From Bryobacterales bacterium (GTDB lineage: Bacteria > Acidobacteriota > Terriglobia > Bryobacterales > UBA6623): a DNA stretch of 64,000 nucleotides. Location of the stretch: the NCBI GenBank assembly GCA_963422375.2, contig CAXXKD010000001.1, positions 1-64,000 of the forward strand. The letters run 5' to 3'. Positions within the stretch are counted from its first letter, which is position 1. Each line of letters starts with the position of its first letter. Shown here piece after piece: positions 2,031 to 28,505 of the stretch. The notes below the pieces were generated by a model. That model ran no database searches, was not told the origin of the DNA, and was given only the letters and a program-made list of their open reading frames with translations. The position numbers and the translations under genes were made by a program.

Positions 2031-2101
2031 GCGGTGCGAGGCGCCTCCGGGGCGCCGGACCCAGTGTACCGCGGGGGCGACGGGGGCGACGGGGGCGATT
2101 C

Positions 2102-3279: not shown

Positions 3280-3734
3280 CCGGCCCAGCCGGGCGCGAGC
3301 GGGCGCGGCGGGTCCGCGACGCCCTCGAGTCCGAGGGCCTCGGGCCGTCCGCCTGGCGCGAGCGCGACTGCGTGACGCTGCTGCGAGCGGTCGTGCGGGC
3401 CCTGTCGGGCCGCGAGCCCTCGCTGGCCCTGCCGGCCTGGACCGACGGCCTCGGCGAGCGCGAGGCGATCCTGCGAGCTCCCCGCGAGCACGGCTCGCTG
3501 CGGGACGGCTGGGCCGCGGTGCTGGACGCCGAGCCGCTGCTGCGGCGCGTCCCGCGGGGATGCCTGCCGCGGCCGGGCATGATCGCCCTGGCGGCGGTCG
3601 TCCTCGGCCCCGGGGGCGAGCGCCTGGCGGGCGCCTCGCCGGGCGTGATCGGCCCGGGCTGCGAGTGCTGGGTCCGGACGCCGCGGGGCATCGAGCGGGC
3701 GCACCCGGTCACGGACCTGTGGGAGGTCCGCTGA
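3267..3734 (+). CDS. Putative NlpC/P60-like tail assembly protein
   Basis: GTG at 3267 with GGAG upstream. W-x-x-x-DC motif (AWRERDC). Lies between the hub and the central fibre, like lambda gpK. Confidence 0.55.
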
Positions 3735-3735
3735 G

Positions 3736-8928
<5,193 letters not shown>

Positions 8929-8935: not shown

Positions 8936-10864
8936 ATGGATCCCGCCTACGTCATCAACGCCTTTCCCGAGCGGCGCGAGGCCGTCGCGTTCGAGCTCGA
9001 GCGCCACGGCGGCGCGGACCCGGCCGCGATCCGCTGGATCGGCGCCCCGCGCGGCAGCGCGGCCCGCGGCGAGCCGCTGTTCGCCTGGCCCCGCTGGCGC
9101 GAGGAGCGGACCGGGGCCCTGCTGACGTGGGGCGAGCTGGCCTGCTTCGCGGGGCACCTCGAGGCCTGGCGGCGCATCGCCGCCGGCGACGCGGGCGGGG
9201 GCTTCGTCTTCGAGGACGACGCCGCGCTGACGGCCCGCCTGGACGGGCTGCCGGCGGAGGCCTTCGCCGGCGCCGGCCTGGTGTACCTGCACTCGCAGTG
9301 GCGCTGCGAGCCCGAGCCGGGCCCGGGCCCCTGGTGCGCGGCGCCGTACACGTGGACGCTGACGGCCTACTGGCTCTCGCGGGAGGCCGCGGCCGGGCTG
9401 GCCGCGGCGGTCGATCCGGACCGGATCGTGCCGGCGGACGAGTACGTGCCGTGGCACTGCGGGACGTGGGACCCGGCCTTCAACCCGCGCGTGCGCGGCG
9501 AGCTGGGGCAGCAGCCGCCGGCGGGGATCGCGGCCCGCTGCCTGCGGGAGCGGCCGGCCGGGCCGTCCGGGCGCTGGGAATCGTCCACCGCGGCCGGCCT
9601 CTCCCCGCCGGCCTTCGACTTCGAGACGGTCGTCTTCGCCACCGAGCCGGCCCGGGCCGGGGAGGCGCTGGGGGCCCTGCGCGACCTCGGCTACCGCCCG
9701 CGGGTCCTCGGCGCGGGCGAGCCGGGCTGGGACGCCTCGGCGGAGGGCGGCATGCCCAAGCTGCGCTGGCTGCGGGAGGACCTCGCGGGATCCGACCCGC
9801 GGCGGCGCGTCGTGCTGGCGCTGGACGGCTACGACACGCTGCCGCTGGTCCCGGCCGCGGAGTTCTGGGCGCGCTTCGCCGGCATGGACTGCCCGGCGGC
9901 GATCTCCGGGGAGCGCGGGCTGTGGCCCCCGCGCAACGAGTGGGTGCCCGACCCGGAGCGCGCCTGGCAGGCGTACTGGGAGGACTGGCCGTGGCGCCGC
10001 GAGGGCGTCGCCGAGCGCTACCGGCACGCGTGCAGCGGCGCCTTCGCCGGGCACGCCGAGACGCTGGACTGGGTGCTGCAGGGCCTGCCGCCCGACGGCG
10101 ACGACCAGGCCTGGATGCAGGCCGCCGTGCTGGCCAACCCGCGCGCCTGGCGGGTCGACTCGGAGGCCTGGCTGTTCCAGTCGCTGGGCGGCGAGGAGGG
10201 CGCCGTCGAGCGGCGCGACGGCGCGGCCTTCAACGCGGCCACCGGCTGCTACCCGGCGATCCTGCACGCCAACGGCCCGCAGGCCTCGCTGGACCCGTTC
10301 CTGCCGGGCCCGCCGCCGGCGGCGCTCGAGCTGGACCCGGACGCCGGGCGCTGGCTGGAGCTGGCGCCGGGCGTCCTGGGCATGCCGTTCCTGTCGCGCG
10401 CGGCCTGCGCCGGGCTGCTCGAGAGAGCGGAGGCCAGCGACGCCTGGCAGCCGCTGGAGGGGGACGCCGTGCCGGGCGACGAGCTGCGCCTGCGCGCGCT
10501 GGACCCGGCGCTGCGGGCGTGGCTGGACGAGACCCTGCGCGCGGTCGTCGGTCCGGCGGTCGCGGCGCGCTGGCATCCCGCCGCCTGGAAGGACCCCTGC
10601 GACGCCTTCCTGATCCGCTACCGCCCGGACCGCCAGCCGTCGCTGCGGCTGCACGAGGACATCAGCTACCTGTCCTGCTCGATCCGCCTGCGGCGGGCCT
10701 GCGCGGGCGGGCAGCTGCGCTTCCCGCGCCAGAATTTCGACGACGGCGCGGCGGACGACGGCTGGCTGCTGCTGTGGCCGTCGCGGATCACGCACCCGCA
10801 CCGCGTGCTGCCGGTGCGGCGGGGGACGCGCGCCAGCCTGGTGGTGTGGACCCCGGAGAGCTGA
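8936..10864 (+). CDS. Three-domain collagen-modifying enzyme candidate: GT25 (COLGALT-like) + PLOD-type glycosyltransferase + PLOD-type lysyl hydroxylase (2OG-Fe(II))
   Basis: GT25 motifs: [44 protein letters not shown] motifs: [43 protein letters not shown]. Hydroxylase motifs: [48 protein letters not shown]. Confidence 0.88.
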
Positions 10865-10879: not shown

Positions 10880-11722
10880 GTGCCCGCGTTTATCCGCTGG
10901 CGCGTCGAGGCCGCCGGGGGGACCGACTTCGGCGCGCCCCAGCCCGTGCTGGCGGGCCTGCCGGGCGGCCCCGGACAGCCCGGGCCCAAGGGCCTGCCCG
11001 GCCGGGCCGGACCGCCCGGAGCCCCCGGGCCGACCGGAGTCCCCGGGCGGGCGGGGCCGGCCGGGCTCCCCGGCCTCGAGGGGTTCCCGGGGCTGCCCGG
11101 CGCCGAGGGCGCCGGGGGCTCCCGGGGGGCCCGGGGGCTCCGGGGCCTGGACGGCGCGCCGGGCGCGAAGGGGGTTCCCGGCCGCCGGGGGGCGCCCGGA
11201 GCGCAGGGCGCGCGGGGGGATCCGGGGGGCCCGGGGGCGCAGGGGCGGCAGGGCTCTCCCGGCGCCCGGGGCCCGGCCGGCGCGCGCGCCGCGCGAGGCG
11301 AGGCCGGCAGGGGCGGCGCGGGCGGAGACCCCGGCGCGGGCGGAGACCCCGGCGCCCGGGGCGCCGGCGGCACCCCCGGAGACCGCGGCAGTCCCGGCTC
11401 CCGGGGAGACAGGGGCTCCCTGGGCGACAGGGGCCCCCCGGGCGCCGGAGGAGACGCCGGCGCCCCCGGAGACCGCGGCAGTCCCGGCTCCGGGGGAGAC
11501 GCCGGCGCCGCCGGAGGCATCGGTATCACCGGCTCGGACGGGGCCGGCGGGGCCGGCGGCGAGCCCGGGGGCGCCGGAGACCAGCCCAGCGGGCCGGACG
11601 GATGGTCCGGGCCGGCCGGACCGCCGGGAGACCCGGGCGGGAACGTCTACCTGCAGGCTTACGACGACGGGTACGGCGAGGGCTACTTCGACGGCGAGGA
11701 CGACTGCTACTCCGAGCAGTGA
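10880..11722 (+). CDS. Collagen-like protein A (280 aa; Arg/Asp-rich helix, acidic C-terminal tail)
   Basis: Long Gly-X-Y run; GGGGAG RBS; ends [24 protein letters not shown]. Confidence 0.9.
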
Positions 11723-11730: not shown

Positions 11731-12597
11731 ATGCCGACGACGACGTGGACGACGGAGGCCGCCGCCGTCGAGCGGGACGACCTGCGCGCGCGGGACTTCG
11801 GCCCGGCGCGAGCGGACTCCGCGCTGCACCCGCCCGGGCCGCCCGGGCCGCGCGGGGAGACGGGCCCGCCGGGGCCCCGGGGCCCGGACGGGCCTGCCGG
11901 GCGCCCGGGGCCGCCCGGGCCGCGCGGGGAGACGGGCCCGCCCGGCGCGTTCGCCCGCGCCGGCGCCCCGGGCGCTCCGGGCCCGGCCGGCCCCAAGGGC
12001 TCCGCGGGCCTGCCCGGACAGCCCGGAACCCCCGGCGCTCCGGGCGCCAAGGGCTGGCCCGGACGGCAGGGCCTGCCGGGAGCCGAGGGAGCCGGGGGCG
12101 CCAAGGGCCGCAAGGGCTACAGGGGCCCCGGGGGCCCCGGGGGCTCCAAGGGCTCCAGGGGCGCCAAGGGCGCCAAGGGCTACAGGGGCCCCGGGGGCCC
12201 CAAGGGCGTCGAGGGCCGGAAGGGCTCCGACGGCGCGCGGGGCGCCAAGGGATACAGGGGCGCCAAGGGGACCAAGGGGACCAAGGGCTCCAAGGGGACC
12301 AAGGGCCTCAGGTCCTTCCCCTTCCGCGGGCCCCGGGGCCCCAAGGGCTACAGGGGCAGCCCCGGCCCGGCCGGCGGGACCGGCCGCGGGGGCTACGCGG
12401 GCGCGCGGGGCCCGCGCGGGGCCCGCGGGCCGGCCGGCGAGCCGGGCCCGATCGGCCAGGTCTACCAGGAGCCGCTGCGCGGCGACCCCGGGCCGAAGGG
12501 GCGCAAGGGCGCCAAGGGCAGGCGCGGCCGGACGCTGGGCTACTCCTCCGGGTACGCGGCCGGGCATGCTGACGGATACGCGGATGCCGGCTGCTAG
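11731..12597 (+). CDS. Collagen-like protein B (288 aa; X-Lys-Gly rich)
   Basis: ATG at 11731 (3' part of ORF 9127..12597). GPP/GPR triplets then [15 protein letters not shown]; ends [19 protein letters not shown]. Confidence 0.9.
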
Positions 12598-13435
12598 CGG
12601 GGCGCTGTGGACGATCGTCGCGCGCGCCCCGGACGCCCGCTCCGTGCGGGCCGGGGGCTTCGGCGCGCCGCGGCTGTACGCCGGCCCCGTCGGCCCCGTC
12701 GGCGAGCGCGGACGCCCGGGACCGCCCGGCGGCGAGGGGCACCCCGGACCGCCCGGACCGCCCGGACCGCGGGGCCCGCGCGGGCCCCGCGGCCGGCAGC
12801 GGCGCGGCGAGCGCGGACGCCCCGGGGCCGTCGGCCAGCGGGGCGCGCCGGGCGACCCGGGACCGGCGGGCCGGGGCGGCGACCCCGCCCCCGACGGCGC
12901 GCAGGGCGACAGGGGCGCCCGGGGCCTGCCCGGGAGGCAGGGCGACCCCGGCCCCGGCGGCGCGCAGGGCGACAGGGGCGCCCGGGGCCTGCCCGGGAGG
13001 CAGGGCGACCCCGGCCTCGGCGGCGCGCAGGGCGACAGGGGCGCCAAGGGCGTCAAGGGCTCCAAGGGGCGCAAGGGCTACAGGGGCGTCAAGGGCGCCA
13101 AGGGCGCCAAGGGCGCCAAGGGCGCCAAGGGCTCCGACGGCGCGCGGGGCGCCAAGGGCCCCAAGGGGTACAAGGGCGCCAAGGGGTACAAGGGCGCCAA
13201 GGGCGCCAAGGGCGCCAGGGGCCGGAAGGGCCCCAAGGGGTACAAGGGCGCCAAGGGGTACAAGGGGTATAAGGGATACAAGGGGAGCAAGGGCGAGGCC
13301 GGCTACTATTCCGGCAGCCCGTTCAACCCCGAGGACTACCGGGGGGCGCCCGGGCCGCCCGGCTCCAAGGGCGCCAAGGGCGCTTCCGGAGGAGGACGCA
13401 ACTATGGCCGGACGACGCTACCGCATGCTCGCTGA
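12584..13435 (+). CDS. Collagen-like protein C (about 283 aa; very X-Lys-Gly rich; start could be 12566)
   Basis: Gly-X-Y run ending in GAK/GYK/GPK arrays. The 12584 start gives an MP... N-terminus like proteins A and B. Confidence 0.88.
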
Positions 13436-13667
13436 CGGCGACCCGGACAAGCTCTCGGCGGAGAGCTTCCGCGCTTTCGGCGAGCTGGCCGCGCGGCGCG
13501 GGAGGGCCCCCGTCACCCTCTGGGTGCTCGAGTCCGACGAGGAGCTCTCCGCCGAGGGCGCCCGCCCGCTGCGCCCGCTGCCGGACGGCACCTGGGAGGC
13601 TCCCGGCGGCCGCCGCTGGCGCCGCTTGACCGGGACCCCCGGCGGCGCGGAGGGCCCCCGCGCGTGA
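13404..13667 (+). CDS. Small hypothetical protein sharing a motif with the tail-fibre inter-collagen domain
   Basis: Strong GGAGGAGG RBS and GTGA coupling to the next gene. RPLRPLPDGTWEAPGGRRW resembles the fibre segment [19 protein letters not shown]. Confidence 0.65.
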   Translation: MAGRRYRMLADGDPDKLSAESFRAFGELAARRGRAPVTLWVLESDEELSAEGARPLRPLPDGTWEAPGGRRWRRLTGTPGGAEGPRA

Positions 13668-14218
13668 ACGGCCCCTGGAGCCTGGTGCCCGGCGCCGTCG
13701 ACGACTGCGCGGGCCTGCTGCGCGCGCTGCTCGACAGCACGGAGCTGCGCCCCGGCACCGTCAACGGCGACGGCTCCGTGCGCCCCGACATCCGCCGCTC
13801 CGCCGTCGGCTGGCCCGACCCCGCCCGCCACGCCGCCGAGCTCGCCCGCGTGCGCCGGGCCGTTCTCGCGGCCAACCGCGAGCTGTGGGGCTTCGATCTC
13901 GACGGCGGCGAGGAGTGGCAGCTCACGCACTACACCCATCTCGACGCGGGCGTCTACGAGCGGCACATGGACTGCTCGCTGGAGGGCGGGCGGCCGCGCT
14001 GCCGCAAGGTCTCCGTCTGCGTCAACCTGTCCGACCCGCGCGACTACGAGGGCGGCTCGCTGCGGCTGGGGGCCGTGGGCCAGCCCGACCGCGCGGCGCT
14101 GCGCCAGCGCGGCGCCGCGCTGGTCTTCCCCAGCTTCGTCGAGCATCGCGTCACGCCCTTGCTGGCCGGGGAGCGCTACTCCCTCGTCGCCTGGTTCTCC
14201 GGGCCGGCCTGGCGCTAG
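13664..14218 (+). CDS. 2OG-Fe(II) oxygenase (PKHD / prolyl-hydroxylase-like)
   Basis: HMD (HxD), RKVSVCVNLSDPRDYEGGSL, VFPSFVEHRVTP and GERYSLVAW motifs. Confidence 0.9.
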   Translation: MNGPWSLVPGAVDDCAGLLRALLDSTELRPGTVNGDGSVRPDIRRSAVGWPDPARHAAELARVRRAVLAANRELWGFDLDGGEEWQLTHYTHLDAGVYERHMDCSLEGGRPRCRKVSVCVNLSDPRDYEGGSLRLGAVGQPDRAALRQRGAALVFPSFVEHRVTPLLAGERYSLVAWFSGPAWR

Positions 14219-14811: not shown

Positions 14812-16908
14812 ATGTCTGTCGAATACTCGATGAGAATTTCCCGGCTTACCGTCGACAAGTTGGGGGTCAAGCTCTACGACAAGGTGTCCGCCGTCATCGC
14901 CGAACTCATCGCGAACGCCTACGATGCCGATGCCACACATGTGACGGTTCGAGCGCCGATGGGGCAGTTTCTGGCGACTCGAGCCGGAGGCACCGTGGCG
15001 GACAAGGGCTTCAGCATCGAAGTCGACGACGACGGCATCGGCATGACGCCTCAGCAGGTACAGGACTTCTTTCTCGTCGTCGGTTCCGAGCGGCGGAACG
15101 ACACCAGCCGAGGCGACCGTTCGCCCCGCTACAGACGTAAGGTCATGGGCCGCAAGGGCGTCGGAAAGCTGGCACCCTTCGGTATCTGCAAGACCATCGA
15201 GGTGATCAGTGCCGGCGGAGATTTCATCGACGGCGGGGGTGCGACCCCGGGCGCCACGGGCTACCTCACGTCCCACATCGTCCTCTACTACGATGGCATC
15301 ACGGCGCTCGATGATGAGCCCGACGAACGCTACAAGCCGGTCGTGGGCGACCGCGATGAGTCTTACTCCCCGAAGTCGGGGACTCGAATCATCCTGAAGG
15401 ACTTCAGCCACCGGAGGGTCCCCGAGCTCAATGTCCTCGGCCGCCAGCTCGCCCAACGCTTTGGTATCCCGTCGACGGACTGGAATGTCCAGCTTCTGGA
15501 CAACACGGAATCCACTCCGTCACCGGTGACGGTCGGCACCTTCGACATTCAGACGATGCCGAACACGAAGCTCACGTTTGGGCAGAATGGAACTGTACTC
15601 AACCCCGACGGTGCTCCTGCGATGGACCAGTCGGCCGGATTCGAACATGAGGGCATATTTCGCCCCATCACAGGCTGGATGGCGTACTCGAAGGCTCCCT
15701 ACAAGGACGAGCTCATGGCTGGGGTGAGAATCTACTGCCGCGGCAAGATCGCCGCCCAGACATCCATCTTCAACCAGCGGGCCGGCTTTACCGGCGAGCA
15801 CAACATCCGCTCCTATCTCGTCGGCGAGCTCCACGCCGACTGGCTCGACGAAGAAGAAGACCTCATCCAAACCGATCGACGGGACATCCTCTGGTCGGAC
15901 GAACTCGCTGCCGCCTTCCAAGCTTGGGGCCAGAGAATCGTCAAGAAGATCGGCACCCTGTCGCGGGAGCCCATGCGGAGAGCGACTTTGGATCTGTTCC
16001 TCGAGACGGGCGATGTCGACGCTCGCATCCAGAACGCCTATCCGACCGAAGAGCAACAAGACATTCGCAAAAGCGCGAAAGAGGTCGCCGAATCCTTCGG
16101 TCGCACGATCAGCCGAGGGGATGTCGAAGATGCCAGCGTCGTGAACGAACTGGTCGATCTGAGCATCACCCTCGCGCCCCACATCACGCTCAACGCCAAG
16201 ATGAAGGAAGCGGTCGCCAGCGCCGACACGCCGCTCTCTGTCCTAGCTTCGTTCCTGCGTACGGCGCGATTGGCCGAACTGTCCTCGTTCGGCAGAATCG
16301 CGGAAGACCGCCTCAAGGTCATCGACCGCCTCGAAATTCTGAAGGACGCCGACGACACCGACGAGAACGATCTTCAGCGGCTGATCACTGACGCTCCCTG
16401 GTTGATCAACCCTGAATGGGCGCCGGTGACCGAAAACCAAACCTTCGCGAGTTTGCGCCGGGAGTTCGAGAAGTACTACAACGACAAGACCGGCCAGTCC
16501 ATTTCGTTGTCCGATTTCCAGAAGACGGGCAAACGGCCGGACTTCGTCTTGTCCAATCAGGAAGGCACGGTGCAGATCATCGAGATCAAGAAGCCGGGCC
16601 ATAGACTGTCGAACCCGGAAATGGACAGGATCGTCACCTACTACGAGAACATGGAGGCGTTCCTTGACGACCCTGGGCATACCGCGTTTCGCATGCACTT
16701 GGCCGACTTCCATGTCACCGTGGTCTGCGACAGGCTCGGTTTGAGCGGTTCTCCGCGCGCCGCCTTTGATGGTTATCGTGACAAAGGCAGACTGACGCGC
16801 ATGGACTGGACGGCGTTTCTCCTGAAATCGGAACAAGTGCACCAGGATTTTCTCAGCGAGGCCCAGCGTCAGCGTGCCGCCGGACCAGCGGTTCCCGACG
16901 GCCATTGA
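14812..16908 (+). CDS. GHKL (MORC / HATPase_c_3-like) ATPase with C-terminal PD-(D/E)xK nuclease
   Basis: ELIANAYDADA, DDGIGM, GRKGVGKLA and SGT GHKL motifs; C-terminal RPDFVL...IIEIKK. Confidence 0.88.
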   Translation: MSVEYSMRISRLTVDKLGVKLYDKVSAVIAELIANAYDADATHVTVRAPMGQFLATRAGGTVADKGFSIEVDDDGIGMTPQQVQDFFLVVGSERRNDTSRGDRSPRYRRKVMGRKGVGKLAPFGICKTIEVISAGGDFIDGGGATPGATGYLTSHIVLYYDGITALDDEPDERYKPVVGDRDESYSPKSGTRIILKDFSHRRVPELNVLGRQLAQRFGIPSTDWNVQLLDNTESTPSPVTVGTFDIQTMPNTKLTFGQNGTVLNPDGAPAMDQSAGFEHEGIFRPITGWMAYSKAPYKDELMAGVRIYCRGKIAAQTSIFNQRAGFTGEHNIRSYLVGELHADWLDEEEDLIQTDRRDILWSDELAAAFQAWGQRIVKKIGTLSREPMRRATLDLFLETGDVDARIQNAYPTEEQQDIRKSAKEVAESFGRTISRGDVEDASVVNELVDLSITLAPHITLNAKMKEAVASADTPLSVLASFLRTARLAELSSFGRIAEDRLKVIDRLEILKDADDTDENDLQRLITDAPWLINPEWAPVTENQTFASLRREFEKYYNDKTGQSISLSDFQKTGKRPDFVLSNQEGTVQIIEIKKPGHRLSNPEMDRIVTYYENMEAFLDDPGHTAFRMHLADFHVTVVCDRLGLSGSPRAAFDGYRDKGRLTRMDWTAFLLKSEQVHQDFLSEAQRQRAAGPAVPDGH

Positions 16909-16913
16909 CGAAC

Positions 16914-19478: not shown

Positions 19479-19529
19479 GCAGCGACTGCGGCCTCTTCGT
19501 CCGGGAAAGCCTCGTCGAGCGGAGAGGGC

Positions 19530-19826: not shown

Positions 19827-20477
19827 CTACAACGCCCTGCCCGCCCAGCGCACCTCGCCGACCACGCGGCTCTCCCGCGGCAGGGGCAGGGGCTCGAAGG
19901 CGCGGTTCTCGCTCTCCAGCAGCCACGCGCCGGCTGAACGGCGGGCCCGCTTGACGACCAGCAGCCCGTCGCCGGTGCGCACGACGAAGACCCTCCCGCT
20001 GGCCATCGCCCGCCGCTCGTGATCGACCAGGATCCAGCAGCCGTCCTCCAGCAGCGGCTCCATCGAGTCGCCGATCACCTCGATCACGCTGCAGCGGCCC
20101 GCGGCCACGCGGTGCCGCCGCAGCCAGCGGCGGGGGAAGGCCACGTGGCCGACCACCGGCTCGGACTCGACCTCCGCGCCGGCGCCCGCCGCCGCGCGGA
20201 CGTCGCGCAGGGGCACCAGGTCGGCCTCGCGCTCGCCCAGGAGGGCGGGCTGGAGCACGGCCGCGGGCGAGGGCTCGTCGGTGAGGCCGGCGAGGTAGTC
20301 GAGGGACACGCCCAGCGTGCGCGCGGCCTTAACTAGGCCGTCGAAGCGGAAGGTCCTGTGACCGGCTTCGACCCGCGAAATCATCGCATGGTCGTAGCGA
20401 TCCCCGAGGGCCGCGGCCAATTCGACTTGCTTCAATCCCGCCCGCTGCCTTGCGGCAGCTAGGCGTTTTCCTAGCAT
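19827..20477 (-). CDS. CI/LexA-like phage repressor (XRE HTH + S24 peptidase)
   Basis: N-terminal HTH, AAAGAG cleavage region, GDSMEP serine and VVKR lysine motifs. Confidence 0.95.
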   Translation of the reverse strand: MLGKRLAAARQRAGLKQVELAAALGDRYDHAMISRVEAGHRTFRFDGLVKAARTLGVSLDYLAGLTDEPSPAAVLQPALLGEREADLVPLRDVRAAAGAGAEVESEPVVGHVAFPRRWLRRHRVAAGRCSVIEVIGDSMEPLLEDGCWILVDHERRAMASGRVFVVRTGDGLLVVKRARRSAGAWLLESENRAFEPLPLPRESRVVGEVRWAGRAL

Positions 20478-20483
20478 TCATCC

Positions 20484-20555
20484 AGCCTAAGAAAAAAAAG
20501 TTCTTGACATGTGTCTCGGAGACACTTACATTGGGACATGTGTCTCGGAGACACT
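20484..20555. promoter_or_regulatory. Genetic switch: two 21-bp operator repeats, rightward promoter TTGACA-17-TACATT, leftward -10 TAGGCT
   Basis: GACATGTGTCTCGGAGACACT at 20506-20526 and 20535-20555, with a GTGTCT-cgg-AGACAC palindrome core. -35 at 20504-20509, -10 at 20527-20532. Confidence 0.88.
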
Positions 20556-20562
20556 CACACTG

Positions 20563-20793
20563 ATGAGACATCTCCACGTAAGGATCGCTGAGGTCGGCGT
20601 GAAGCACGTCGACGTGGCGGCCCAGCTTAAGCTCCACCCGTCGGCGTTCAGCGCGATCTTGAGCGGCCGCCGTCGCCCGCCCGACGGCTTCGAGGCACGC
20701 GTCTCGCAGGCCCTCGACCGCCTAGAGGCCGCCGAGAGGGCCGCTTCCGAGGCGCGGGCCCGCGTGCTCGCGGGGAAGGAGGGCGTCGCGTGA
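20563..20793 (+). CDS. Cro-like HTH protein
   Basis: Divergent from the repressor; HVDVAAQLKLHPSAFSAILSGRR HTH. Confidence 0.8.
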   Translation: MRHLHVRIAEVGVKHVDVAAQLKLHPSAFSAILSGRRRPPDGFEARVSQALDRLEAAERAASEARARVLAGKEGVA

Positions 20794-20896
20794 CGGCCGA
20801 CCTGCCGGGCCTGATGGCTTTCCTCCCGGAGGTGATGTCCCCGGGGGGAACGCGGGGCGGCTATCGGTTACGGCCGTCCCGCGACGGAGGCGCCCG

Positions 20897-21157
20897 GTGA
20901 CGCACCTGGAGATCGCCCTCGCGGCCCTCGCGGTGTCGCACTCGCTGACCGCCGCGATCGCGATCAGGGCCCTGCTGTCCAGCGAGGCCACTCGGCGAGA
21001 AGCGCGTAAACGGCGTCGAGATGCCCGCCGGCTGGCTCGGACCCGGGATTCTTCCGTGCTTCGCGCGATCGAATCGCTATCCGCTCGCCCCAGAAGCCGA
21101 AGATCGCGTCCCGCGCCTCCGTCGAAAGAGAGCCCTCTCGATGGAGCAGCTCGATGA
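20897..21157 (+). CDS. Small protein, N-terminal hydrophobic helix plus basic tail (paralog 1)
   Basis: GGAGG RBS. MTHLEIALAALAVSHSLTAAIAIRAL is similar to 21462..21737. Confidence 0.5.
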   Translation: MTHLEIALAALAVSHSLTAAIAIRALLSSEATRREARKRRRDARRLARTRDSSVLRAIESLSARPRSRRSRPAPPSKESPLDGAAR

Positions 21158-21248
21158 GGGCGGCGAGCGCGAACTCGGTGTCGGTCGGGGCGTACCCGTA
21201 CCGGTCGCATTCCCGGGCGATCTCGCGGACCGCCTCGACAGGCTGCAT
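20964..21248 (-). CDS. Small hypothetical protein antisense to the early operon
   Basis: AGGAGGAAAG RBS lies inside hairpin copy 2. TAGAAT -10 at 21331-21336 on the minus strand. Protein-like composition. Confidence 0.55.
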   Translation of the reverse strand: MQPVEAVREIARECDRYGYAPTDTEFALAALIELLHREGSLSTEARDAIFGFWGERIAIRSREARKNPGSEPAGGHLDAVYALLAEWPRWTAGP

Positions 21249-21461
21249 GACTTTCCTCCTGGAGGTGCTGTCTCCGGGAGGAACGCGGGGCGGCCGCTCT
21301 CAACGGCCGTCCCGCACCCGGATCGTTCCGATTCTAGCGCGAGGCCGCTCCGCCTCGCGCCCTTTCCCCCCGGCTGCCTGTCCCCCGGGGGGAACGCGGG
21401 GCGGCTATCGGTTACGGCCGTCCCGCACCCGGATCGCCCGCACCCGCGACGGAGGCGCCCG

Positions 21462-21737
21462 GTGACGCCCGTCGAGATCGCCCTCGCCCTGACGGCCTTG
21501 TCGCTCGCGCTGACCGCCGCGGCCGCGGTCCGGGCCCTGCAGGCCGGCTTCGCGGCGCGGCGGGACGAGCGCCGCTGCCGGCGCGCGCTGCGCCGGCGGT
21601 ACCGCGAGCGCCTGGCCCAGGCGACCCGCCGCATGCGCGAGTCCCCGGCCGGCCGCCGCGACGGAGGCTCCGCGGCCCGGCAGCGGGTCCGGGCGGCCCG
21701 GGCGGCGGCGGCGCGGGAGGAGGCGCCGCGATGCTGA
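21462..21737 (+). CDS. Small protein, N-terminal hydrophobic helix plus basic tail (paralog 2)
   Basis: GGAGG RBS; MTPVEIALALTALSLALTAAAAVRAL; overlaps the YqaJ start. Confidence 0.55.
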   Translation: MTPVEIALALTALSLALTAAAAVRALQAGFAARRDERRCRRALRRRYRERLAQATRRMRESPAGRRDGGSAARQRVRAARAAAAREEAPRC

Positions 21738-22642
21738 CTCCGGAGCAGGTCGCGGCCCGGCGCGCGGGGCTGGGCGGCAGCGACGCCGCGGCGGCCCTCG
21801 GCCTGTCGCCCTGGAAGACGCAGCTCGAGCTGTACTTCGAGAAGACCGGCCAGGCCCCCGAGGCCGCGCCCACCGAGGCCATGCAATGGGGCCTGCGCCT
21901 CGAGAGCGCCGTGGCCCGGGCCGCCGGCGAGCGCCTCGGGGCGCGCCTGCGGCGGCGGCGCGTCACCCTGGCCCGCCGCGAGCGCCCCTGGATGCTGGCC
22001 CACGTCGACCGCGAGGTGGTCGGGCGCAAGGCGCTCCTCGAGATCAAGACGGCCGCCCGCCGCGACGGCGCGTGGGGCGAGGAGGGCAGCGACCGCGTGC
22101 CCCGGCACTATCTGTGCCAGGCGGCCCACTACCTGGCGGTGAAGCGCTGGGAGACGTGCTGGCTGGCCGTGCTGTTCCTCGCCGAGCGGCGCCTGGCCCT
22201 GTACGAGATCCGCCGCGACGCCGACCTCGAGGCCGCCCTGGTCGCGGCCGAGAGCCGCTTCTGGCACCAGCACGTCCTCCAGCGCGTCCCCCCGGACCCG
22301 CGCGACGCCGCCGACGCCCGGAGGCGCTGGAAGGTCTCGCGCGACGGCGCGGCCGAGGCCGACGAGCGGACGCTCGAGAGCCTGCGGGACCTGCGTCGGA
22401 CGCGGGCCGAGCTGCGCTCGCTGGAGGCCCGCCGCGACGAGCTCGAGCGGGCCGCGATGCAGCGCATGGGCGAGGCCTCCGAGCTGGTGCATCCGGCCAC
22501 CGGGGAGACGCTGGCCACCTGGAAGGCCTCCGCCCGCCGCAGCGTGGACGTGAAGGCCCTGCGCCGCGAGCGGCCCGACGTGGCCGCCGAGTTCGAAGTC
22601 GCCGCGCCCGTGCGGCGGTTCCTGCTGAAGGAGACGACATGA
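21731..22642 (+). CDS. YqaJ-like viral recombinase / lambda-type exonuclease
   Basis: RRAGLGGSDAAAALGLSPWKT, WGLRLE, AHVDR, LEIKT and YLCQAAHYL motifs. Confidence 0.93.
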   Translation: MLTPEQVAARRAGLGGSDAAAALGLSPWKTQLELYFEKTGQAPEAAPTEAMQWGLRLESAVARAAGERLGARLRRRRVTLARRERPWMLAHVDREVVGRKALLEIKTAARRDGAWGEEGSDRVPRHYLCQAAHYLAVKRWETCWLAVLFLAERRLALYEIRRDADLEAALVAAESRFWHQHVLQRVPPDPRDAADARRRWKVSRDGAAEADERTLESLRDLRRTRAELRSLEARRDELERAAMQRMGEASELVHPATGETLATWKASARRSVDVKALRRERPDVAAEFEVAAPVRRFLLKETT

Positions 22643-23346
22643 GCGAGAGCGCGCTCGCGGCCGGGACGGCCGCCCCCGCCGACCCCCTGCGGTCCGGCTT
22701 CGAGGAGGCCCAGCGCGTGGCCTCCATGCTCACCCGCAGCTCGCTGGTGCCGGCCGCCTACCGCGCCCCGCCCGAGGCCGAGGCGGGCTCGCCCGCGGCG
22801 CGCCAGGCGGTGGCCAACTGCATGGTGGCCCTCGAGCTGGCCCGCCGCGCGGGGCTCTCCCCGCTCGCGGTGATGCAGAACGTGGACGTGATCGCCGGGC
22901 GCCCGAGCTGGCGCGCGACCTTCCTGATCGCGACCTGCAACGCCTGCGGGCGCTTCGAGCGCCTGCGCTTCCGCATGAGCGGCGAGGGCCCGTCGCGGGC
23001 CTGCGTCGCCTGGACCCGCGAGCGGCCCGGCGGGGAGGAGCTCGAGGGCCCCCCGGTCTCGATGGAGATGGCCGCGGCCGAGGGCTGGGTCGGCCGCCCC
23101 GGCTCCAAGTGGCGCACCATGCCCGAGCTGATGCTGCGCTACCGCGCCGCGGCCCTGTTCTCGCGGCTGTACGCGCCGGACCTGCTCATGGGCATGTCGT
23201 CCGGCGAGGAGGCGCTCGACGCCGCGCCGGAGCCGGAGCCGGAGCCGGCCGCCGGCGGCGTGTCCGGACTCAAGCACGCCCTGGCCGCGCCCGCCGCGCC
23301 CGCCGCGGACGGCCTGTTCGCCGGGACGAAGGAGGCGGCGCCGTGA
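22639..23346 (+). CDS. RecT/Redbeta-like ssDNA annealing protein
   Basis: ATGA-coupled to YqaJ; SSLVPAAY, NCMVAL, PLAVMQNVDVIAGRPSW and KWRTMPELMLRYRA motifs. Confidence 0.85.
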   Translation: MSESALAAGTAAPADPLRSGFEEAQRVASMLTRSSLVPAAYRAPPEAEAGSPAARQAVANCMVALELARRAGLSPLAVMQNVDVIAGRPSWRATFLIATCNACGRFERLRFRMSGEGPSRACVAWTRERPGGEELEGPPVSMEMAAAEGWVGRPGSKWRTMPELMLRYRAAALFSRLYAPDLLMGMSSGEEALDAAPEPEPEPAAGGVSGLKHALAAPAAPAADGLFAGTKEAAP

Positions 23347-23741
23347 AATGCAGGTCGAGAGAGCTCGCCAGCCTCGAGCCCGGCCAGGAGGTGACCCGCA
23401 TCCGCGTCCGGCGCGGGCGCTTCCTGGGCGTGTCGTCGCCACCCGGGCTGGCCCTGTTCGAGCCGCTCTACCCGTCCGGCCCCGGAGAGCCGGTCGAGGT
23501 CGAGGACCGCGAGCTGTTCGCGACGCACGGCCGGCCGGCCGAGGTCCTCGCGCCCGGCGACCACGCGCTGTGGATCGAGGACCTGCGCGTCGCGTGGGGC
23601 TTCTACCGGGGCGCGGCGCCGGGCGGCGCGGCCCTGTTCGAGCCCGACGACGACGAGCCCTGGCTGCAGGCCCGGGCCGGCGACGCGGTCGAGGTCGACC
23701 CGTCCAGCTTGTTCAGGTGTCCGGAGGGGCGGGCGTCATGA
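23343..23741 (+). CDS. Hypothetical phage protein with an internal duplication
   Basis: GTGA coupling; the pattern GxALFEP...VEV....LF occurs twice. Confidence 0.6.
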   Translation: MKCRSRELASLEPGQEVTRIRVRRGRFLGVSSPPGLALFEPLYPSGPGEPVEVEDRELFATHGRPAEVLAPGDHALWIEDLRVAWGFYRGAAPGGAALFEPDDDEPWLQARAGDAVEVDPSSLFRCPEGRAS

Positions 23742-23932
23742 AGCTCGAGCTCTGCGCGCCCGGCCGCAAGGTCCTCTTCCGGCCCGGCGACGGGCCGCCC
23801 CGCGCGGTCGAGATCCTGGACGCGCTGCGGCACGCGCGCACCACCGGCCCGCGGGTGCTGGTGGCCGACGCCGGCCGCAGGCGCTGGTGTTCCGAGGAGC
23901 GCCTGGAGCCGCTCCCGGGAGGCGGCTCGTGA
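23738..23932 (+). CDS. Small hypothetical phage protein
   Basis: GGAGG RBS; 4-bp overlaps at both ends. Confidence 0.55.
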   Translation: MKLELCAPGRKVLFRPGDGPPRAVEILDALRHARTTGPRVLVADAGRRRWCSEERLEPLPGGGS

Positions 23933-24165
23933 GGGGCCGCGAGCGCCGCGAGGCCGTGGCCGCGGCCGTGGCCCGCTACCGCGCCGCGGGCGTGCGCTGG
24001 AGCGACTGGGCCCGCGCGCACGGATTCAAGTACCAGGCCGTCCGGGACGTCGTCCGCGGCCGCAGCGCCTGCTCCCACGGCGAGGCCTTCCGCGTGGCGG
24101 TGGCCATGGGCGCGATCCCGGAGCCGCCGCCCGAGCTGCGGCACCTGAGCGGGGGGCGCCCGTGA
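23929..24165 (+). CDS. Phage DNA-binding protein, BcepMu gp16-like
   Basis: GVRWSDWARAHGF...VRDVVRGRSACSHGEAFRVAVAMG. Confidence 0.8.
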   Translation: MRGRERREAVAAAVARYRAAGVRWSDWARAHGFKYQAVRDVVRGRSACSHGEAFRVAVAMGAIPEPPPELRHLSGGRP

Positions 24166-24563
24166 CGGGCGCGAAGCGGCTGGCGCGGCAGCGCAAGCGC
24201 TACGCCCAAGACAAGGCGCTCGGGGTCTGCGTGCGGTGCGCCCGGATGGTGCCGCGCCTGGGGGACCCCCTCTGCCCCGAGTGCTTGCAGGGCCAGGCGC
24301 GGATATCGCGGCGCTCGAAGCGCAAGGCGCGGGCCGCCCTGGCGTCGAGCGGGCTGTGCGCCCGATGCGGAGCCCGCCCGGCCCGGCGCGGCGTCCTCCT
24401 GTGCGGCGAGTGCAGGGACAGGGAGACCGCGGAGAACAAGCGCCGCCGCGAGGCCCGCGCCGCGCAAGGCCTCTGCATCCAGTGCGGCGCGACCGCCGTC
24501 GCCGGCCGCTATCGCATGTGCCTGGCCTGCCGGCTAGCCGCGTCGGAGCGCAAGAGACGATGA
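24162..24563 (+). CDS. Protein with three tandem CxxC...CxxC zinc-finger repeats
   Basis: GVCVRC..LCPEC, GLCARC..LCGEC, GLCIQC..MCLAC. Confidence 0.75.
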   Translation: MTGAKRLARQRKRYAQDKALGVCVRCARMVPRLGDPLCPECLQGQARISRRSKRKARAALASSGLCARCGARPARRGVLLCGECRDRETAENKRRREARAAQGLCIQCGATAVAGRYRMCLACRLAASERKRR

Positions 24564-24841
24564 CCGTGCGCGCCTTCGTCGAGGGACCGTGGACCGCGGC
24601 CTGCCACGGAACGGGGAATTCGTCTTCGGCGGCGAGGCGGCCCTGTCGAACGAGACGCTGTCGCGCGCACTTCGCGCTAGAGTTCCGCGGGACGCCCCGC
24701 GACATGGCGATCGCGCGGGCGACCGACCGCGAGGGGGTACGCAGGTTCATCGGGCTCTTCATGCCCCTGACGGACTCGCGGGACGGGGGCTGGGATCTGC
24801 CCTGGCCGGACTGGGCCCCGCCCGCGGAGGAGGCGAAATGA
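24560..24841 (+). CDS. Hypothetical phage protein
   Basis: ATGA overlaps at both ends; no recognised motif. Confidence 0.4.
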   Translation: MTVRAFVEGPWTAACHGTGNSSSAARRPCRTRRCRAHFALEFRGTPRDMAIARATDREGVRRFIGLFMPLTDSRDGGWDLPWPDWAPPAEEAK

Positions 24842-25494
24842 CGGCGGCCCGGACGACGGCGGCCTGGACGGTGCGGTACCTGTCGCTCCAGTCCCTGCCC
24901 GGCGAAACCCAGGTCCACGAGGGCGAGCTGGGCGCCTACTTCGCCGAGAGCGCGGAAGAGGCCCTCGACGCCGCCGAGGCCGACGTCGCGGCGGCCAGCC
25001 CGCGCGACCGGCGCTGGTTCGAGCGCGAAGGCCGCGAGTGCGAGTGGTGCTGCTACTGCGGGTGCGCCTGCGGGTGCGCCGCCTGCGAAGCCTGCGACGC
25101 GAGCGCGGACTGCGAGTGCGTCTGCGAGTGCGGCAGGCATCGCGACGCGAGCGGCGAGCCGGTGGAGCTGCCGCGGGTGGACCTGTCCTGCTTCGGCGCC
25201 GGCGCCCTCGCCGGCGAGCGCCCGGGCGTCGCCGCCGGCTCGCGGCACGAGCTGAGGTGCATGCGGGGCGGCGACGGGATGCCGGTCCGGCCCGGCCGGA
25301 GCGTGACGCTCCTGCCGCTCGCGGCCCCGGCGCGCCTGCCGCTGTCGACCCCGCCCGGACCCGGCGAGACGGGCGTGACGGAGGAGCTCGGATCGCCGGG
25401 CTCGGGCGCCGCCCTGGTGCGCTGGGAGCGCTCCGGCGACCTCTGGTGCCCGGTCGCGGATCTCGCGGTCACCCGCAGCCGGAGGTGGGCGTGA
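24838..25494 (+). CDS. Hypothetical protein with a dense Cys cluster
   Basis: GGAGGAGG RBS; CEWCCYCGCACGCAACEACDASADCECVCECGRH. Confidence 0.6.
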   Translation: MTAARTTAAWTVRYLSLQSLPGETQVHEGELGAYFAESAEEALDAAEADVAAASPRDRRWFEREGRECEWCCYCGCACGCAACEACDASADCECVCECGRHRDASGEPVELPRVDLSCFGAGALAGERPGVAAGSRHELRCMRGGDGMPVRPGRSVTLLPLAAPARLPLSTPPGPGETGVTEELGSPGSGAALVRWERSGDLWCPVADLAVTRSRRWA

Positions 25495-26717
25495 CCGTGC
25501 GCGTGGACGAGATCCGCGTCGGGCCGCGGCACCGCCGCGAGCTGGGCGACGTCGAGGAGCTGGCGCGCTCGATCCGCGCGGTAGGCCTGCTGCAGCCGGT
25601 CGGCGTCCGGCGCTCCGGAGAGGGCTTCGAGCTCCTCTTCGGCGCCCGGCGCCTGGAGGCCTGCCGCCGGCTGGGCCGCGAGGAGATCGAGGCCTTGCTG
25701 GTGGACATCGAGCCGGACGCCGGCGAGCGGGCCGAGTGGGCCGAGTGGGAGGAGAACGAGATCCGCAAGGACCTCGCCCCGAGCGAGCGCGTCGCCCTCG
25801 CGGAGGCCCTGCGGTCGGAAAATATTCCGATCGCCGCCGTCCCGCGCCCGGACTCGGAAAATATTCCGAAGCCGACCGTCGCCGAGGCCGCGAAGAGGGC
25901 GGGCTTCGGCAACCAGCGCACCTTTCGCGACGCGCGCAAGGTCGGCGCGAACGGCACCGAGTCGCTGCGCCGGGCGATGGACGCGGGCCGGATCAGCGTG
26001 TCCGCGGCCGCCCGGCTGGCCGATCTCCCGCCCCAGCGGCAGGACGAGCTGGTCGCCGGCGAGCCCCGCGAGCGGCGCGAGGCCGTGCGCTCGCTGCGGG
26101 CGGGCCGGGGCGACCCGGAAAATATTCCGAGTCCCGGCGATCCGGAAAATATTCCGAGTCCGGGCATCCGCCCGCCGACGGCCTCCGAGCGGATCGGCTG
26201 GCTCGTGCGGGCGCTGGAGGCATTCGAGCGCGAAGCCCGCGACGCCGGCGTGACCGCGGCCCACCTGCGGGCGGCGGACGTCGCGCGGCGCGAGACGCTG
26301 CGACGGGCCCTGGCCTCGGCCTCCGGCCTGCTGGACCGGCTGGCCCGCGAGGCGAGCCCGGGCGCGGGAGCGCCTGCCTGGGAAGCCTACGCCGCGGCCT
26401 ACCTCGGGCGCTACGGCGTCCCGCCGGTGCGCAACGCGAGGGTCAACGCGCAGATGGCCCTGTTCGCGAGCCGCGTGCCGGGCGGGGACGCGCCGGCCGT
26501 GGCCGCCTTCTACGTCGGCCATCCCGGCGCCTGGTACGCCCGCGCCGGCCACGCGGTCGGGCAGCTCCTGGCCGACGCCGAGAAGCTGCACATGGAATGG
26601 CGGCGGGGGCGCCCCGTGACGGCCGCGGGGGCGGCCCGCGCCGAGCGCTCCGCGGCCAACGTGGAGAGCTCGCTGGGGGCTCTCGAGCTGCTGCGGGAGA
26701 GCGGGCATGTCCGGTAG
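25491..26717 (+). CDS. ParB N-terminal domain fused to a phage replication-initiator-like C-terminal domain
   Basis: LARSIRAVGLLQPV, LLFGARRLEA and EENEIRKDL (ParB); WEAYAAAYLGRYGVPPVRNARVN...LLADAEKL (phage replication-protein C-terminus as recalled). Confidence 0.8.
   Translation: MTVRVDEIRVGPRHRRELGDVEELARSIRAVGLLQPVGVRRSGEGFELLFGARRLEACRRLGREEIEALLVDIEPDAGERAEWAEWEENEIRKDLAPSERVALAEALRSENIPIAAVPRPDSENIPKPTVAEAAKRAGFGNQRTFRDARKVGANGTESLRRAMDAGRISVSAAARLADLPPQRQDELVAGEPRERREAVRSLRAGRGDPENIPSPGDPENIPSPGIRPPTASERIGWLVRALEAFEREARDAGVTAAHLRAADVARRETLRRALASASGLLDRLAREASPGAGAPAWEAYAAAYLGRYGVPPVRNARVNAQMALFASRVPGGDAPAVAAFYVGHPGAWYARAGHAVGQLLADAEKLHMEWRRGRPVTAAGAARAERSAANVESSLGALELLRESGHVR
25815..26157. 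repeat. Four 16-bp quasi-palindromic repeats (T/C)CGGAAAATATTCCGA; candidate origin iterons or parS-like sites
   Basis: Copies at 25815, 25854, 26115 and 26142; AT-rich islands within a very GC-rich gene. Confidence 0.85.
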
Positions 26718-27240
26718 CGACGCGCGCGCGATGCTCGGGGCGATCACCCTGACGGCCGAGCTGTGCGGGGCGGACCTGAGCGAGCGGGCCCGGGCGGCCA
26801 TGGTGCGGCGCCTGGAGCCGTTCGGCCGCGCGGCCGTGCTGGCCGCCCTCGACCGCGTGCAGGCGGAGCATCACGGCAGGCTGACCCTGGCGGCCGTGAT
26901 CGACCGCATCGAGGACGGGCGGCCGGGCCCGGAGGAGGCCTGGGCCGTCTGCTGGCGCGACGAGAGCGAGTCGGCCTGGCTGACCGCCGAGCAGATCCGG
27001 GCGGCCCGGGCGGCCGCCCCCCTGGCGCGGGCCGGCGACCCGGTCGGGGCCCGCATGGCCTTCCTCGAGGTCTACCGGCGCGAGACGCGGATCGCCCGCT
27101 CGGCCGGCCGCCCCGCGGAATGGCGTCTCGCCCCGGGCTCCGATCCGGAGCGCCTGCGAGAGGCCGTCCGCCTCGGCGCGGCCCGAGGCCTCGCGAGGGC
27201 GCTGCCGCCGGCCGCGAACGGGACGGATGTGGCCGCATGA
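26707..27240 (+). CDS. Putative helicase loader/inhibitor-like replication accessory protein
   Basis: Directly follows the initiator; TAELCG, LTLAAVIDRIEDGRPGPEEAWA and ARMAFLEVY motifs. Confidence 0.6.
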   Translation: MSGSDARAMLGAITLTAELCGADLSERARAAMVRRLEPFGRAAVLAALDRVQAEHHGRLTLAAVIDRIEDGRPGPEEAWAVCWRDESESAWLTAEQIRAARAAAPLARAGDPVGARMAFLEVYRRETRIARSAGRPAEWRLAPGSDPERLREAVRLGAARGLARALPPAANGTDVAA

Positions 27241-28505
27241 GGGCGAATCAGCTACAATCCCTGGCCGAGGTCGGGGACTTGGCGCGGCGCCGGTTGCAGA
27301 AGCAGGGGGAGCTCGTGAAATCCGGCGGCTTTTGGAAGGGCCGCTGGCGCGAGGACGTGCGTCTGGAGGGCGGCGGCATCGCCCGCAAGTGGTCGCCGCG
27401 AGTGATGGTCGCCCCGGCCGAGGGCCGCTTCGCCGTCACCAAGCGCGAGGCCCAGCGCATGTTCTGGGACACCTACCTGGCGAAGCTCGACGACAACAAT
27501 CTCGTGCCGCGCTCGATGGAGACGTTCGGTCACTTTTCAGCGGGTCACTACGACAGAGAGCGCCTCGCGCGCCTGCGGCGGCCCGCATCGCCCCGCCTCT
27601 GCCTCGCCCGGCTCCCGGAATGGTTCGCGCGGCTGCGCCTGCGGGACGTGACCAAGGCGGACGTGCAGCGGGCCTGCGACGAGCTGCTCGCGGCGGGCCT
27701 CGCCCCGGGCACCGCGCGCAACACGCGCGCGGCCGTCCACGCCCTGTTCGAGTTCGCGGCCGAGGAGGGCTTCCACGCCGGTCGCAACCCCGCCCGGGGG
27801 GTGCGGATCCCGCAGGGCGGGACCCGCGAGACGCGGGCCCTCTCCTACCCCGAGGCGCGGGCCCTGCTGGACGGCATGAAGCATCGCGCCGCCAAGGACA
27901 TCACGGCGTGCGCCCTGATGACGGGCTGCCGCATCTCCGAGATCGCCGGCCTCAAGTGGGGCCGCGTCAACCTCGGGAGCGCGTGGAAGTCGGACGGGGG
28001 GACGATCGTGCCGCCGCGCTCGGCGGCCGTCGTCGAGCAGTGGTGCCGGGGCGCCGGCGGGCCCCTCAAGACCGCTTCGAGCCAGCGGGTCGTGCCCCTG
28101 CCCGGACCGCTGGCCGCGATCCTCGGCAAGCGCCGCGACGAGGCTCCCGCGGACTCCGCCTACGTCTTCGCGGGCCCGCGGGGCCGGCCCTGGTCGATCG
28201 GCTCGCTGGCGCGCTGCTACCTCCAGCCCGCGGCGGCGGCCGCCGGCGTCGGACGGGTCCACTGGCACGCCTTGAGGCACACCCACGCCACGTGGCTCTT
28301 CCAGCTGGGCATGGCCGAGCCCGACCGCAAGGCGCAGCTGGGGCATGCCGCGCCCGGGGCGCACGCCGGGTACCTGCACTTGCGCCTCGAGGACCGCAGG
28401 GAGCCGCTGGAGAGGCTGGCCGCCTCGCTGTTCGGGCCGGATCCGGAACCCGAGCCCGAGCCGACCGCCGAGGATCTCGCGGCCCTGGAAGGGTACTTCG
28501 CGTGA
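27237..28505 (+). CDS. int: Tyrosine recombinase / phage integrase
   Basis: TGCRISEIAGLKW, LKT, HALRHTHATW, QLGH and catalytic Tyr region (GYLH). Confidence 0.95.
   Translation: MRANQLQSLAEVGDLARRRLQKQGELVKSGGFWKGRWREDVRLEGGGIARKWSPRVMVAPAEGRFAVTKREAQRMFWDTYLAKLDDNNLVPRSMETFGHFSAGHYDRERLARLRRPASPRLCLARLPEWFARLRLRDVTKADVQRACDELLAAGLAPGTARNTRAAVHALFEFAAEEGFHAGRNPARGVRIPQGGTRETRALSYPEARALLDGMKHRAAKDITACALMTGCRISEIAGLKWGRVNLGSAWKSDGGTIVPPRSAAVVEQWCRGAGGPLKTASSQRVVPLPGPLAAILGKRRDEAPADSAYVFAGPRGRPWSIGSLARCYLQPAAAAAGVGRVHWHALRHTHATWLFQLGMAEPDRKAQLGHAAPGAHAGYLHLRLEDRREPLERLAASLFGPDPEPEPEPTAEDLAALEGYFA

Follow-up and report, generated by a model that had tools for sequence, protein, structure and literature searches.

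A predicted three-domain collagen lysine-modifying enzyme in the tail operon of a Bryobacterales prophage

The window analysed here, positions 1 to 64,000 of contig CAXXKD010000001.1 (assembly GCA_963422375.2, a Bryobacterales bacterium), carries at 8936-10864 an open reading frame (ORF) of 642 amino acids (aa). In it a first-pass annotation, made from the letters alone, had seen a glycosyltransferase family 25 (GT25) domain, a PLOD-type glycosyltransferase (GT) domain and a lysyl hydroxylase (LH) domain. The locus raises the question of whether this is a real enzyme, what it modifies and which product it makes. The region is well supported as a real three-domain phage enzyme, predicted to modify collagen lysines. 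We put at roughly 0.6 the probability that it hydroxylates the Gly-X-Lys-Gly (GxKG) lysines of the phage's own collagen fibres and then adds two sugars in turn.

Domains and family of the fusion protein

The fusion ORF begins with ATG, with AGGAG 5 nt upstream of it and the stop of the preceding tail gene 7 nt earlier, and every GT25, PLOD-GT and hydroxylase motif claimed for it is present. Pfam placed Glyco_transf_25 at aa 52-101 (29.4 bits, cut-off 24), GT_PLOD at aa 249-449 (45.6 bits, cut-off 27) and 2OG-FeII_Oxy_3 at aa 578-639, the last slightly below its cut-off (24.8 bits against 27). NCBIfam has no family matching the fusion, and Rfam gave no match within the window. A PDB search with the fusion alone as query returned LH3 (1e-21) and COLGALT1 (6e-5); a 42-sequence profile returned LH3 (8e-47), the GT2 domain of COLGALT1 (7e-29), R699 (1e-28) and bacterial GT25 (4e-8). 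With one profile per domain, the GT25 domain scored 156 bits for COLGALT1, 66 for bacterial GT25 and 65 for R655, the PLOD-GT domain 168 for LH3 and 160 for R699, and the LH domain 81 for LH3 and 72 for L230, the next best being PiuC at 23.

The structure comparison that had been proposed with LH3, COLGALT1 and L230 was run, by VIA alignment, on an AlphaFold2 model of the fusion (pLDDT 89). Residues 1-228 matched COLGALT1 339-579 (9evj) with Z 24.1, a root-mean-square deviation (rmsd) of 2.3 and 216 residues aligned. Residues 224-457 matched the LH3 GT domain (6wfv; Z 29.0, rmsd 2.0, 216 aligned), and residues 459-640 the L230 LH domain (6ax7; Z 21.5, rmsd 2.2, 172 aligned). Off-family structures gave Z 15.8 (bacterial GT25) and 17.3 (algal prolyl 4-hydroxylase, P4H). 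Between the GT and LH domains, a linker of ~18 aa stands in place of the PLOD accessory domain, which is therefore absent, as had been claimed.

In the GT25 tree, the phage fusions, giant-virus forms and three animal COLGALTs faced 8 of 9 bacterial GT25s across an 83/98 branch. The prophage clade was supported at 100/100 in the PLOD-GT tree, and in the LH tree the phage domains formed one side of a 100/100 branch, with the animal PLODs among giant-virus rows. Rows resembling L230 formed a separate starred clade in the GT25 and LH trees. Profiles, model and trees thus bear out the three domain assignments: a grouping with lipopolysaccharide (LPS) GT25s or unrelated oxygenases was looked for, and all three kinds of evidence placed the domains with collagen enzymes. 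An origin of animal PLODs inside giant viruses, where they were nested in two LH trees, was not adopted, as giant-virus monophyly was not rejected (approximately unbiased test, p 0.178). The LH trees have no independent root and include no non-animal eukaryote, and we claim no direction of transfer.

Judging from the 46 proteins that share it in the first search (E<=5e-72, 36-100% identity), the ORF layout is not due to chance. The compact fusion is widespread in phages, cultured ones included: it occurs in 11 of 50,697 annotated phage records, among them S-CAM9, S-PRM1, S-8S53/55/56 and CRP-6, where it is mostly labelled hypothetical. An IMG/VR scan confirmed at least 541 relatives among 600 candidate stretches, and the stretches of 80 of them were taken into the analysis. 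Across 222 proteins, 109 were compact three-domain forms (cluster members counted), 42 were longer and 71 had other or partial layouts. These other layouts include doubled GT25, methyltransferase-fused and GT11/GT10-fused forms, and GT25 plus hydroxylase with no middle domain (P0063, P0071, P0173, L155). The gene is patchy, being found in 10 of 77 family genomes and in none of 30 other genomes of the genus. The present genome encodes the identical fusion protein three times, in three prophage copies, and no stand-alone host copies of the three domains were found in it. Contigs of two public runs, which may be the source samples, match the gene without differences over 1737 and 1729 nt; no RNA data set containing it was listed for the public runs. 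In the sister assemblies L002 (G035) and L003 (G027:C3) the reading frame is broken, either by one internal stop or by a split into two frames, through decay or assembly error.

Collagen neighbours in the tail operon

The fusion gene belongs to the tail operon of a ~42-kb prophage, with genes for the portal, prohead protease and HK97 capsid at the far contig end, followed by tape measure, distal tail and J-like tail protein genes (Table 1). Its place there, beside probable collagen substrates, is the main support for its function, and lay outside what the first-pass annotation saw. The three small collagens downstream hold 47 lysines, every one of them in GxKG; in the tail protein, 16 of 40 are.

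The association recurs elsewhere. Collagen was found in the flanks of 16 of 18 GTDB loci. Of the 101 loci whose fusion is unbroken, 72 have a run of at least 10 triplets, as do 30 of the 34 with full 10-kb flanks and 31 of 42 clusters at 70% identity. In S-CAM9, S-PRM1, S-8S53 and CRP-6, the fusion gene is preceded by a tail-fibre gene that encodes 55-99 collagen triplets, with many GQKG/GPKG among them; no collagen was seen in a fifth phage record, an 8-kb fragment.

To set these collagens against others, we used an IMG/VR scan for 25 Gly codons in register (at least 135 stretches), which left 124 loci after 9 from repeated contigs were dropped, 69 of them with flanks. Among the matches listed, 2 of the 69 carry the enzyme, and their fractions of lysine in the Y position of Gly-X-Y (Y-Lys) are 0.57 and 0.24. 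The median Y-Lys was 0.247 beside the enzyme (72 loci) and 0.009 in the 67 flanked controls, again on the matches listed. This gap persisted in high-GC loci (0.19 vs 0.04; 17 vs 17 loci) and likewise in low-GC loci (55 vs 50), while Y-Pro, Y-Thr and X-Pro did not differ between the enzyme loci and the 67 controls. Thr-linked glycosylation was also considered as the target and set aside, as Y-Thr does not set these loci apart from the controls.

We asked whether the lysines might be structural, forming salt bridges or a cationic surface, with the enzyme a passenger of the tail module or a relic. KGD/KGE is common in viral collagens, with 391 of 540 control Y-Lys (72%) followed by G-D/E; in the window, chain 1 is acidic at places where chains 2 and 3 are rich in Lys; and the fusion is broken in the two sister assemblies. 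Beside the enzyme, however, the same context accounts for only 581 of 2362 Y-Lys (25%), and for 3 of 54 in the window. Y-Lys outside salt bridges had a median per triplet of 0.177 in the 72 enzyme loci vs 0.0 in 122 controls, 55 of which are unflanked, so that enzyme absence is unchecked there. The best interchain pairing covers 13 of the 47 window lysines, a value reached by 9 of 60 shuffles, although pairing in L001, L004 and L008 exceeds most shuffles. Purifying selection across all domains, and a linkage kept in both siphoviruses and T4-like phages, also speak against a passenger. We consider this explanation very improbable.

A different target, such as LPS or surface glycans of the host (for superinfection exclusion) or another virion protein, would accord with the LPS galactosyltransferases in the GT25 family, with the reading of phage GTs near tail genes as O-antigen modifiers (PMC7029224), with one of the nine bacterial GT25s falling beside the COLGALTs in a split that is not starred, and with the loci that have no nearby collagen. 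Yet the GT25 domain prefers COLGALT1 to bacterial GT25 in both bits and Z, it is fused to a PLOD-type hydroxylase, unlike the stand-alone bacterial LPS GT25s, and its gene lies in the late tail operon and is not a lysogeny moron. Another target would also leave the selective Y-Lys enrichment of the adjacent collagens unexplained, and we regard it as unlikely. Modification of the phage's own collagen lysines is the reading that we follow below.

The three small collagens have matched span lengths in 8 of 8 loci, 230/233/238 in the window and from 126/125/123 to 267/284/258 elsewhere. Within a locus the spread was 0.018, vs 0.22 when permuted (p 2e-5). These 8 non-duplicate loci are the window, L001, L004, L005, L006, L008, L013 and L019; L002, L012, L014 and L020, with one or two genes, and the broken L003 and L011 were left out. 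In all 8, the chains have a common N-terminal W...F-x-x-P motif and slot-specific ends. Non-Gly identity between the window chains is only 7-16%, which makes recent duplication unlikely there; in some loci it reaches 25-49%. Shared indels or gene conversion may be the source of the matched lengths. In the simplest reading, the matched chains hint at a candidate ABC heterotrimer.

A homologue of the stand-alone oxygenase downstream occurs in 60 of 101 enzyme loci vs 3 of 67 control collagen loci, among the matches listed. Its best PDB matches were PKHD/PiuC (E 2e-5) and the Pseudomonas prolyl hydroxylase 4iw3 (E 3e-4). A role as collagen P4H drew no support from Y-Pro content, which was no higher with the gene (0.009 vs 0.014). 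The 80-aa ORF before it (13425-13667) weakly matches, at 27 bits, a tail protein of L008-type prophages.

Table 1. Features of the prophage in the window
Position	Strand	Feature	Residues
296..3734	+	Upstream tail module: end of tape measure protein, distal tail protein (2102-2689), tail protein (2671-3279)	
3736..8928	+	J-like central tail protein (fibre/host specificity), 1730 aa, carrying ~104 collagen triplets (7270-8427); 16/40 Lys in GxKG; probable substrate	
8936..10864	+	Fusion gene, 642 aa: GT25, PLOD-type GT and lysyl hydroxylase, no accessory domain	
8936..9619	+	GT25 domain, COLGALT1 GT2-like, aa 1-228	G66, C70, E93-D94-D95, D168 kept; T141 at Trp495 column
9605..10306	+	PLOD/LH3-type GT domain, aa 224-457	K275, D297/D300, E326, W330, D389-D390-Q391, H444, N446 kept; C366 at Asn165 column
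10310..10858	+	PLOD/L230-type Fe/2OG lysyl hydroxylase domain, aa 459-641	H573, D575, H622, R632
10880..11722	+	Small collagen chain 1, span 230 aa, 2/2 Lys in GxKG, acidic second half, YxxGY-rich tail	
11731..12597	+	Small collagen chain 2, span 233 aa, 19/19 Lys in GxKG	
12566..13435	+	Small collagen chain 3, span 238 aa, 26/26 Lys in GxKG	
13425..13667	+	80-aa ORF kept in 8 sister loci	
13664..14218	+	Stand-alone 2OG-Fe(II) oxygenase, PKHD/PiuC-like	
19827..28505	.	Rest of the prophage in the window: CI-like repressor, RecE/RecT, ParB-like gene, integrase (27237-28505)	

The region common to the other prophage copies stops at ~28676. The prophage spans both ends of its contig C3 (window 1-8380 and G000:C3:479729-494719), and the same holds for C1, a pattern that suggests circular contigs opened inside a repeat. 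A restriction-modification-like cassette at 14812-19500 (a BbrUII/HgiDII-like gene under the cut-off and a Dcm methyltransferase) occupies a slot that varies among the three copies. A moron with a signal-peptide-like start (1368-2030, minus strand) sits between the tape measure and distal tail genes; L004, L006, L008 and L012 have the same opposite-strand slot, with three morons in tandem in L004. ARAGORN predicted a tRNA-Arg(CCT) in each copy (G000 C1:13115-13187, C2:1316990-1317062 and C3:488902-488974), which overlaps a predicted ORF and may be spurious. AGG makes up 7 of 30 Arg codons in chain 2, 7 of 33 in chain 3 and 0 of 64 in the fusion gene.

Catalytic residues and predicted product

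Residues C412, E435, D437, W495, D522 and D570 are described as essential in COLGALT1 (PMC12003778). Matches to the essential set in the fusion are C70, E93, D95 and D168, the EDD motif being E93-D94-D95, and the GT25 domain has COLGALT1-like motifs of the RDP..T.GE..C, EDD and P.DE type. The Asp570 column presumably falls on S217. For the middle domain, needed residues of LH3 are given as E141, W145, D190, D191, Q192 and N165 (PMC10342707). The LH3 set of K89, DxxD, E141, W145, D190-D191-Q192 and HxN255 corresponds to K275, D297/D300, E326, W330, D389-D390-Q391 and H444/N446. Here we assume the LH3 numbering of DxxD and of the HxN histidine. In the hydroxylase of L230, the Fe triad and the arginine that binds 2-oxoglutarate (2OG) are H825, D827, H877 and R887 (PMC9614988); all 42 close relatives keep H573, D575, H622 and R632 of the fusion, in agreement with the earlier statement that the triad and 2OG arginine are intact.

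The L230 LH domain is described as a tail-to-tail dimer held by Leu873 and an aromatic pocket (PMC5802723). I618 and W546/W551 lie near these positions in an alignment read by eye, and complex prediction scored a hydroxylase-domain dimer at 0.58, with one control at 0.49. Ratios of nonsynonymous to synonymous change (pN/pS) for GT25, PLOD-GT and LH were below 1, at 0.18/0.10/0.06 between S-CAM9 and S-PRM1 and 0.54/0.38/0.18 among five close prophage copies; both are small comparisons of relatives, excluding this copy. All three catalytic sites look largely intact.

By analogy with LH3, COLGALT1 and L230, we propose that lysines on unfolded chains would be turned into 5-hydroxylysine by the C-terminal Fe/2OG domain, at the time of late expression and in the cytoplasm. 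A first hexose would be transferred from a uridine diphosphate (UDP)-sugar by the N-terminal inverting GT25 domain; it would be galactose where galE is available and may be glucose in this copy. Onto that hexose the middle retaining domain would place a glucose in alpha-1,2 linkage. The modified chains would then fold into glycosylated triple-helical fibres. Our guess is that the glycans shield and stabilise long exposed fibres; stiffening, protease shielding, adhesion or receptor binding may be other roles.

Several observations weigh against this proposal. In the GT25 domain, Thr141 occupies the essential Trp495 column, with a Trp one place earlier; Trp fills this column in 40 of the 42 clade members, in 16 of 33 marine forms and in 30 of 31 long ones. 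This copy also has REE for RDP, and the position of COLGALT1 Arg351 is deleted throughout the clade. In the middle domain, C366 replaces the acceptor-pocket Asn165 of LH3. Of the 42 clade members, 32 have Cys in that column, all 33 marine and all 31 long forms have Asn, and N165A in LH3 gave no detectable transfer (PMC10342707). No galE over the cut-off was found in the host, in the 30 other genomes of the genus or on this prophage. On the substrate side, 29 of the 101 loci have no collagen in the fetched DNA, including the full-flank cluster L032-L035, whose records are only 20-26% complete; the control set takes in giant-virus and Gly-rich non-collagen repeats; and the loci are kin, so the p-values overstate.

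Sister prophages bear on the sugar donor. A galE match of 312.8 bits (cut-off 262.3) lies beside the fusion gene in three of them, directly after it at L003:11866-12761, after the oxygenase at L004:14859-15800 and 234 nt after the gene at G035:C1:2534355-2535275. In G034 and G035 the prophage-borne galE is the only one over the cut-off. This placement favours UDP-galactose there; in this copy, whose host and genus lack an over-cut-off galE, the first sugar may instead be glucose. Overall galE is rare, in 2 of 101 unbroken loci and 1 of 67 controls among the matches listed.

On the same substrate, the product could be shorter: the hydroxylase would work, with one or both GT domains lost or changed, giving hydroxylysine or a single hexose as for L230. 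The four active-site changes and the lack of a canonical galE in host and prophage argue for this, as do the higher pN/pS of the GT domains than of LH among the close prophage copies and the L230 lineage, which shows that the middle domain can decay. However, the metal ligands and catalytic acids of both GT domains are all kept, the Cys substitution is also found in galE-carrying prophages, the Trp495 column varies in the marine clade too, and the branches of this copy are similarly long for all three domains. We judge the shorter product rather unlikely, and stay with hydroxylation followed by two sugars.

The first-pass annotation had gone further, to an all-in-one version of the animal pathway. 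Its three domains stand. The exact product, glucosyl-galactosyl-hydroxylysine (Glc-Gal-Hyl), is not established, given the two changed residues, a host lacking canonical galE and a GT25-like domain in L230 that adds glucose. The fullest picture, in which one 642-aa chain holds the complete animal pathway and builds Glc-Gal-hydroxylysine, the prophage clade makes ABC heterotrimers and the viral pool is a possible source of PLOD and COLGALT, is possible but doubtful.

Significance and comparison with known systems

Hydroxylysine glycosylation of collagen has so far been described for animals and mimivirus. If our proposal is true, a common phage group, to which cultured cyanophages and a roseophage with the gene labelled 'hypothetical' belong, modifies its tail fibres in this way, which would be a new kind of virion post-translational modification and would offer another reading for glycosyltransferases and oxygenases in phage host-recognition regions. 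It would likewise explain why L230 adds only one sugar, give a small single-chain enzyme that folds in bacteria and could serve to make recombinant collagen in glycosylated form, and make the matched-length three-gene collagens a natural prokaryotic heterotrimer.

In a review, phage collagens are short and most prokaryotic collagens unmodified (PMC8968730). Predicted bacterial collagen hydroxylase/sulfotransferase operons would hydroxylate and then decorate prokaryotic collagen-like proteins (PMC2938197), and mycobacteriophages are reported to glycosylate their own virions (PMC11256854). Both differ from the fusion in using other families (beta-hydroxylase, phytanoyl-CoA hydroxylase, sulfotransferase, other GTs), and are not known to include a PLOD/COLGALT homologue. 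Our literature search, which left out supplements, where alignments could mention phage homologues, found no PLOD/COLGALT-type enzyme described in bacteriophages.

Against human LH3/PLOD3 (6fxk, 6wfv), the fusion shares the catalytic sets of the GT and LH domains, with the GT match given above, but has no accessory domain and no signal peptide, an added GT25 domain and Cys at Asn165, and the phage LH clade stands apart (100/100). Against human COLGALT1/GLT25D1 (9evj), it matches the catalytic GT2 domain but has no GT1 domain, is fused to the hydroxylase rather than complexed with LH3, and differs at Trp495 and Arg351. Mimivirus R699 (9dyt), which glucosylates galactosyl-hydroxylysine (PMC9546862), has a PLOD-type glucosyltransferase domain like that of the fusion (Z 28.2), but is a stand-alone GT with an accessory domain, lacking GT25 and hydroxylase. 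In giant-virus proteins of ~900 aa (L244, L255, L285, L297), the three domains score intact in the same order; unlike the fusion, they keep a 220-370 aa accessory-domain spacer, and our literature search found no reported function for them.

The novelty of a compact fusion, as first put forward, holds for the accessory-free layout, not for the domain order. Mimivirus L230 (895 aa; LH structures 6ax6/6ax7), the nearest protein to have been characterised, already has that order, a GT25-like and a PLOD-type hydroxylase domain in one viral chain, but is ~250 aa longer, has an accessory domain and comes from a virus of amoebae; it is described as an N-terminal GLT25D1-like GT with a C-terminal hydroxylase, which yields glucosyl-hydroxylysine on viral collagen (PMC9614988). 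What is uncharacterised in the searchable literature is a phage-borne form that lacks the accessory domain and has all three sites apparently live. Five L230 orthologues (P0246, which is named as a Tupanvirus procollagen-lysine enzyme; L320, L322, L323, L329) scored 130-147 bits for GT25 and 72-92 for LH, but at most 3.8 for the middle PLOD-GT profile, on which this fusion reached 194 bits and animal PLODs 149-181. From these orthologues we infer that the middle domain of L230 is dead, which would fit its one-sugar product beside a separate R699 (PMC9546862, PMC12279948). The fusion, at 642 aa and not ~900 aa, lies outside the clade of these orthologues and has the middle domain intact.

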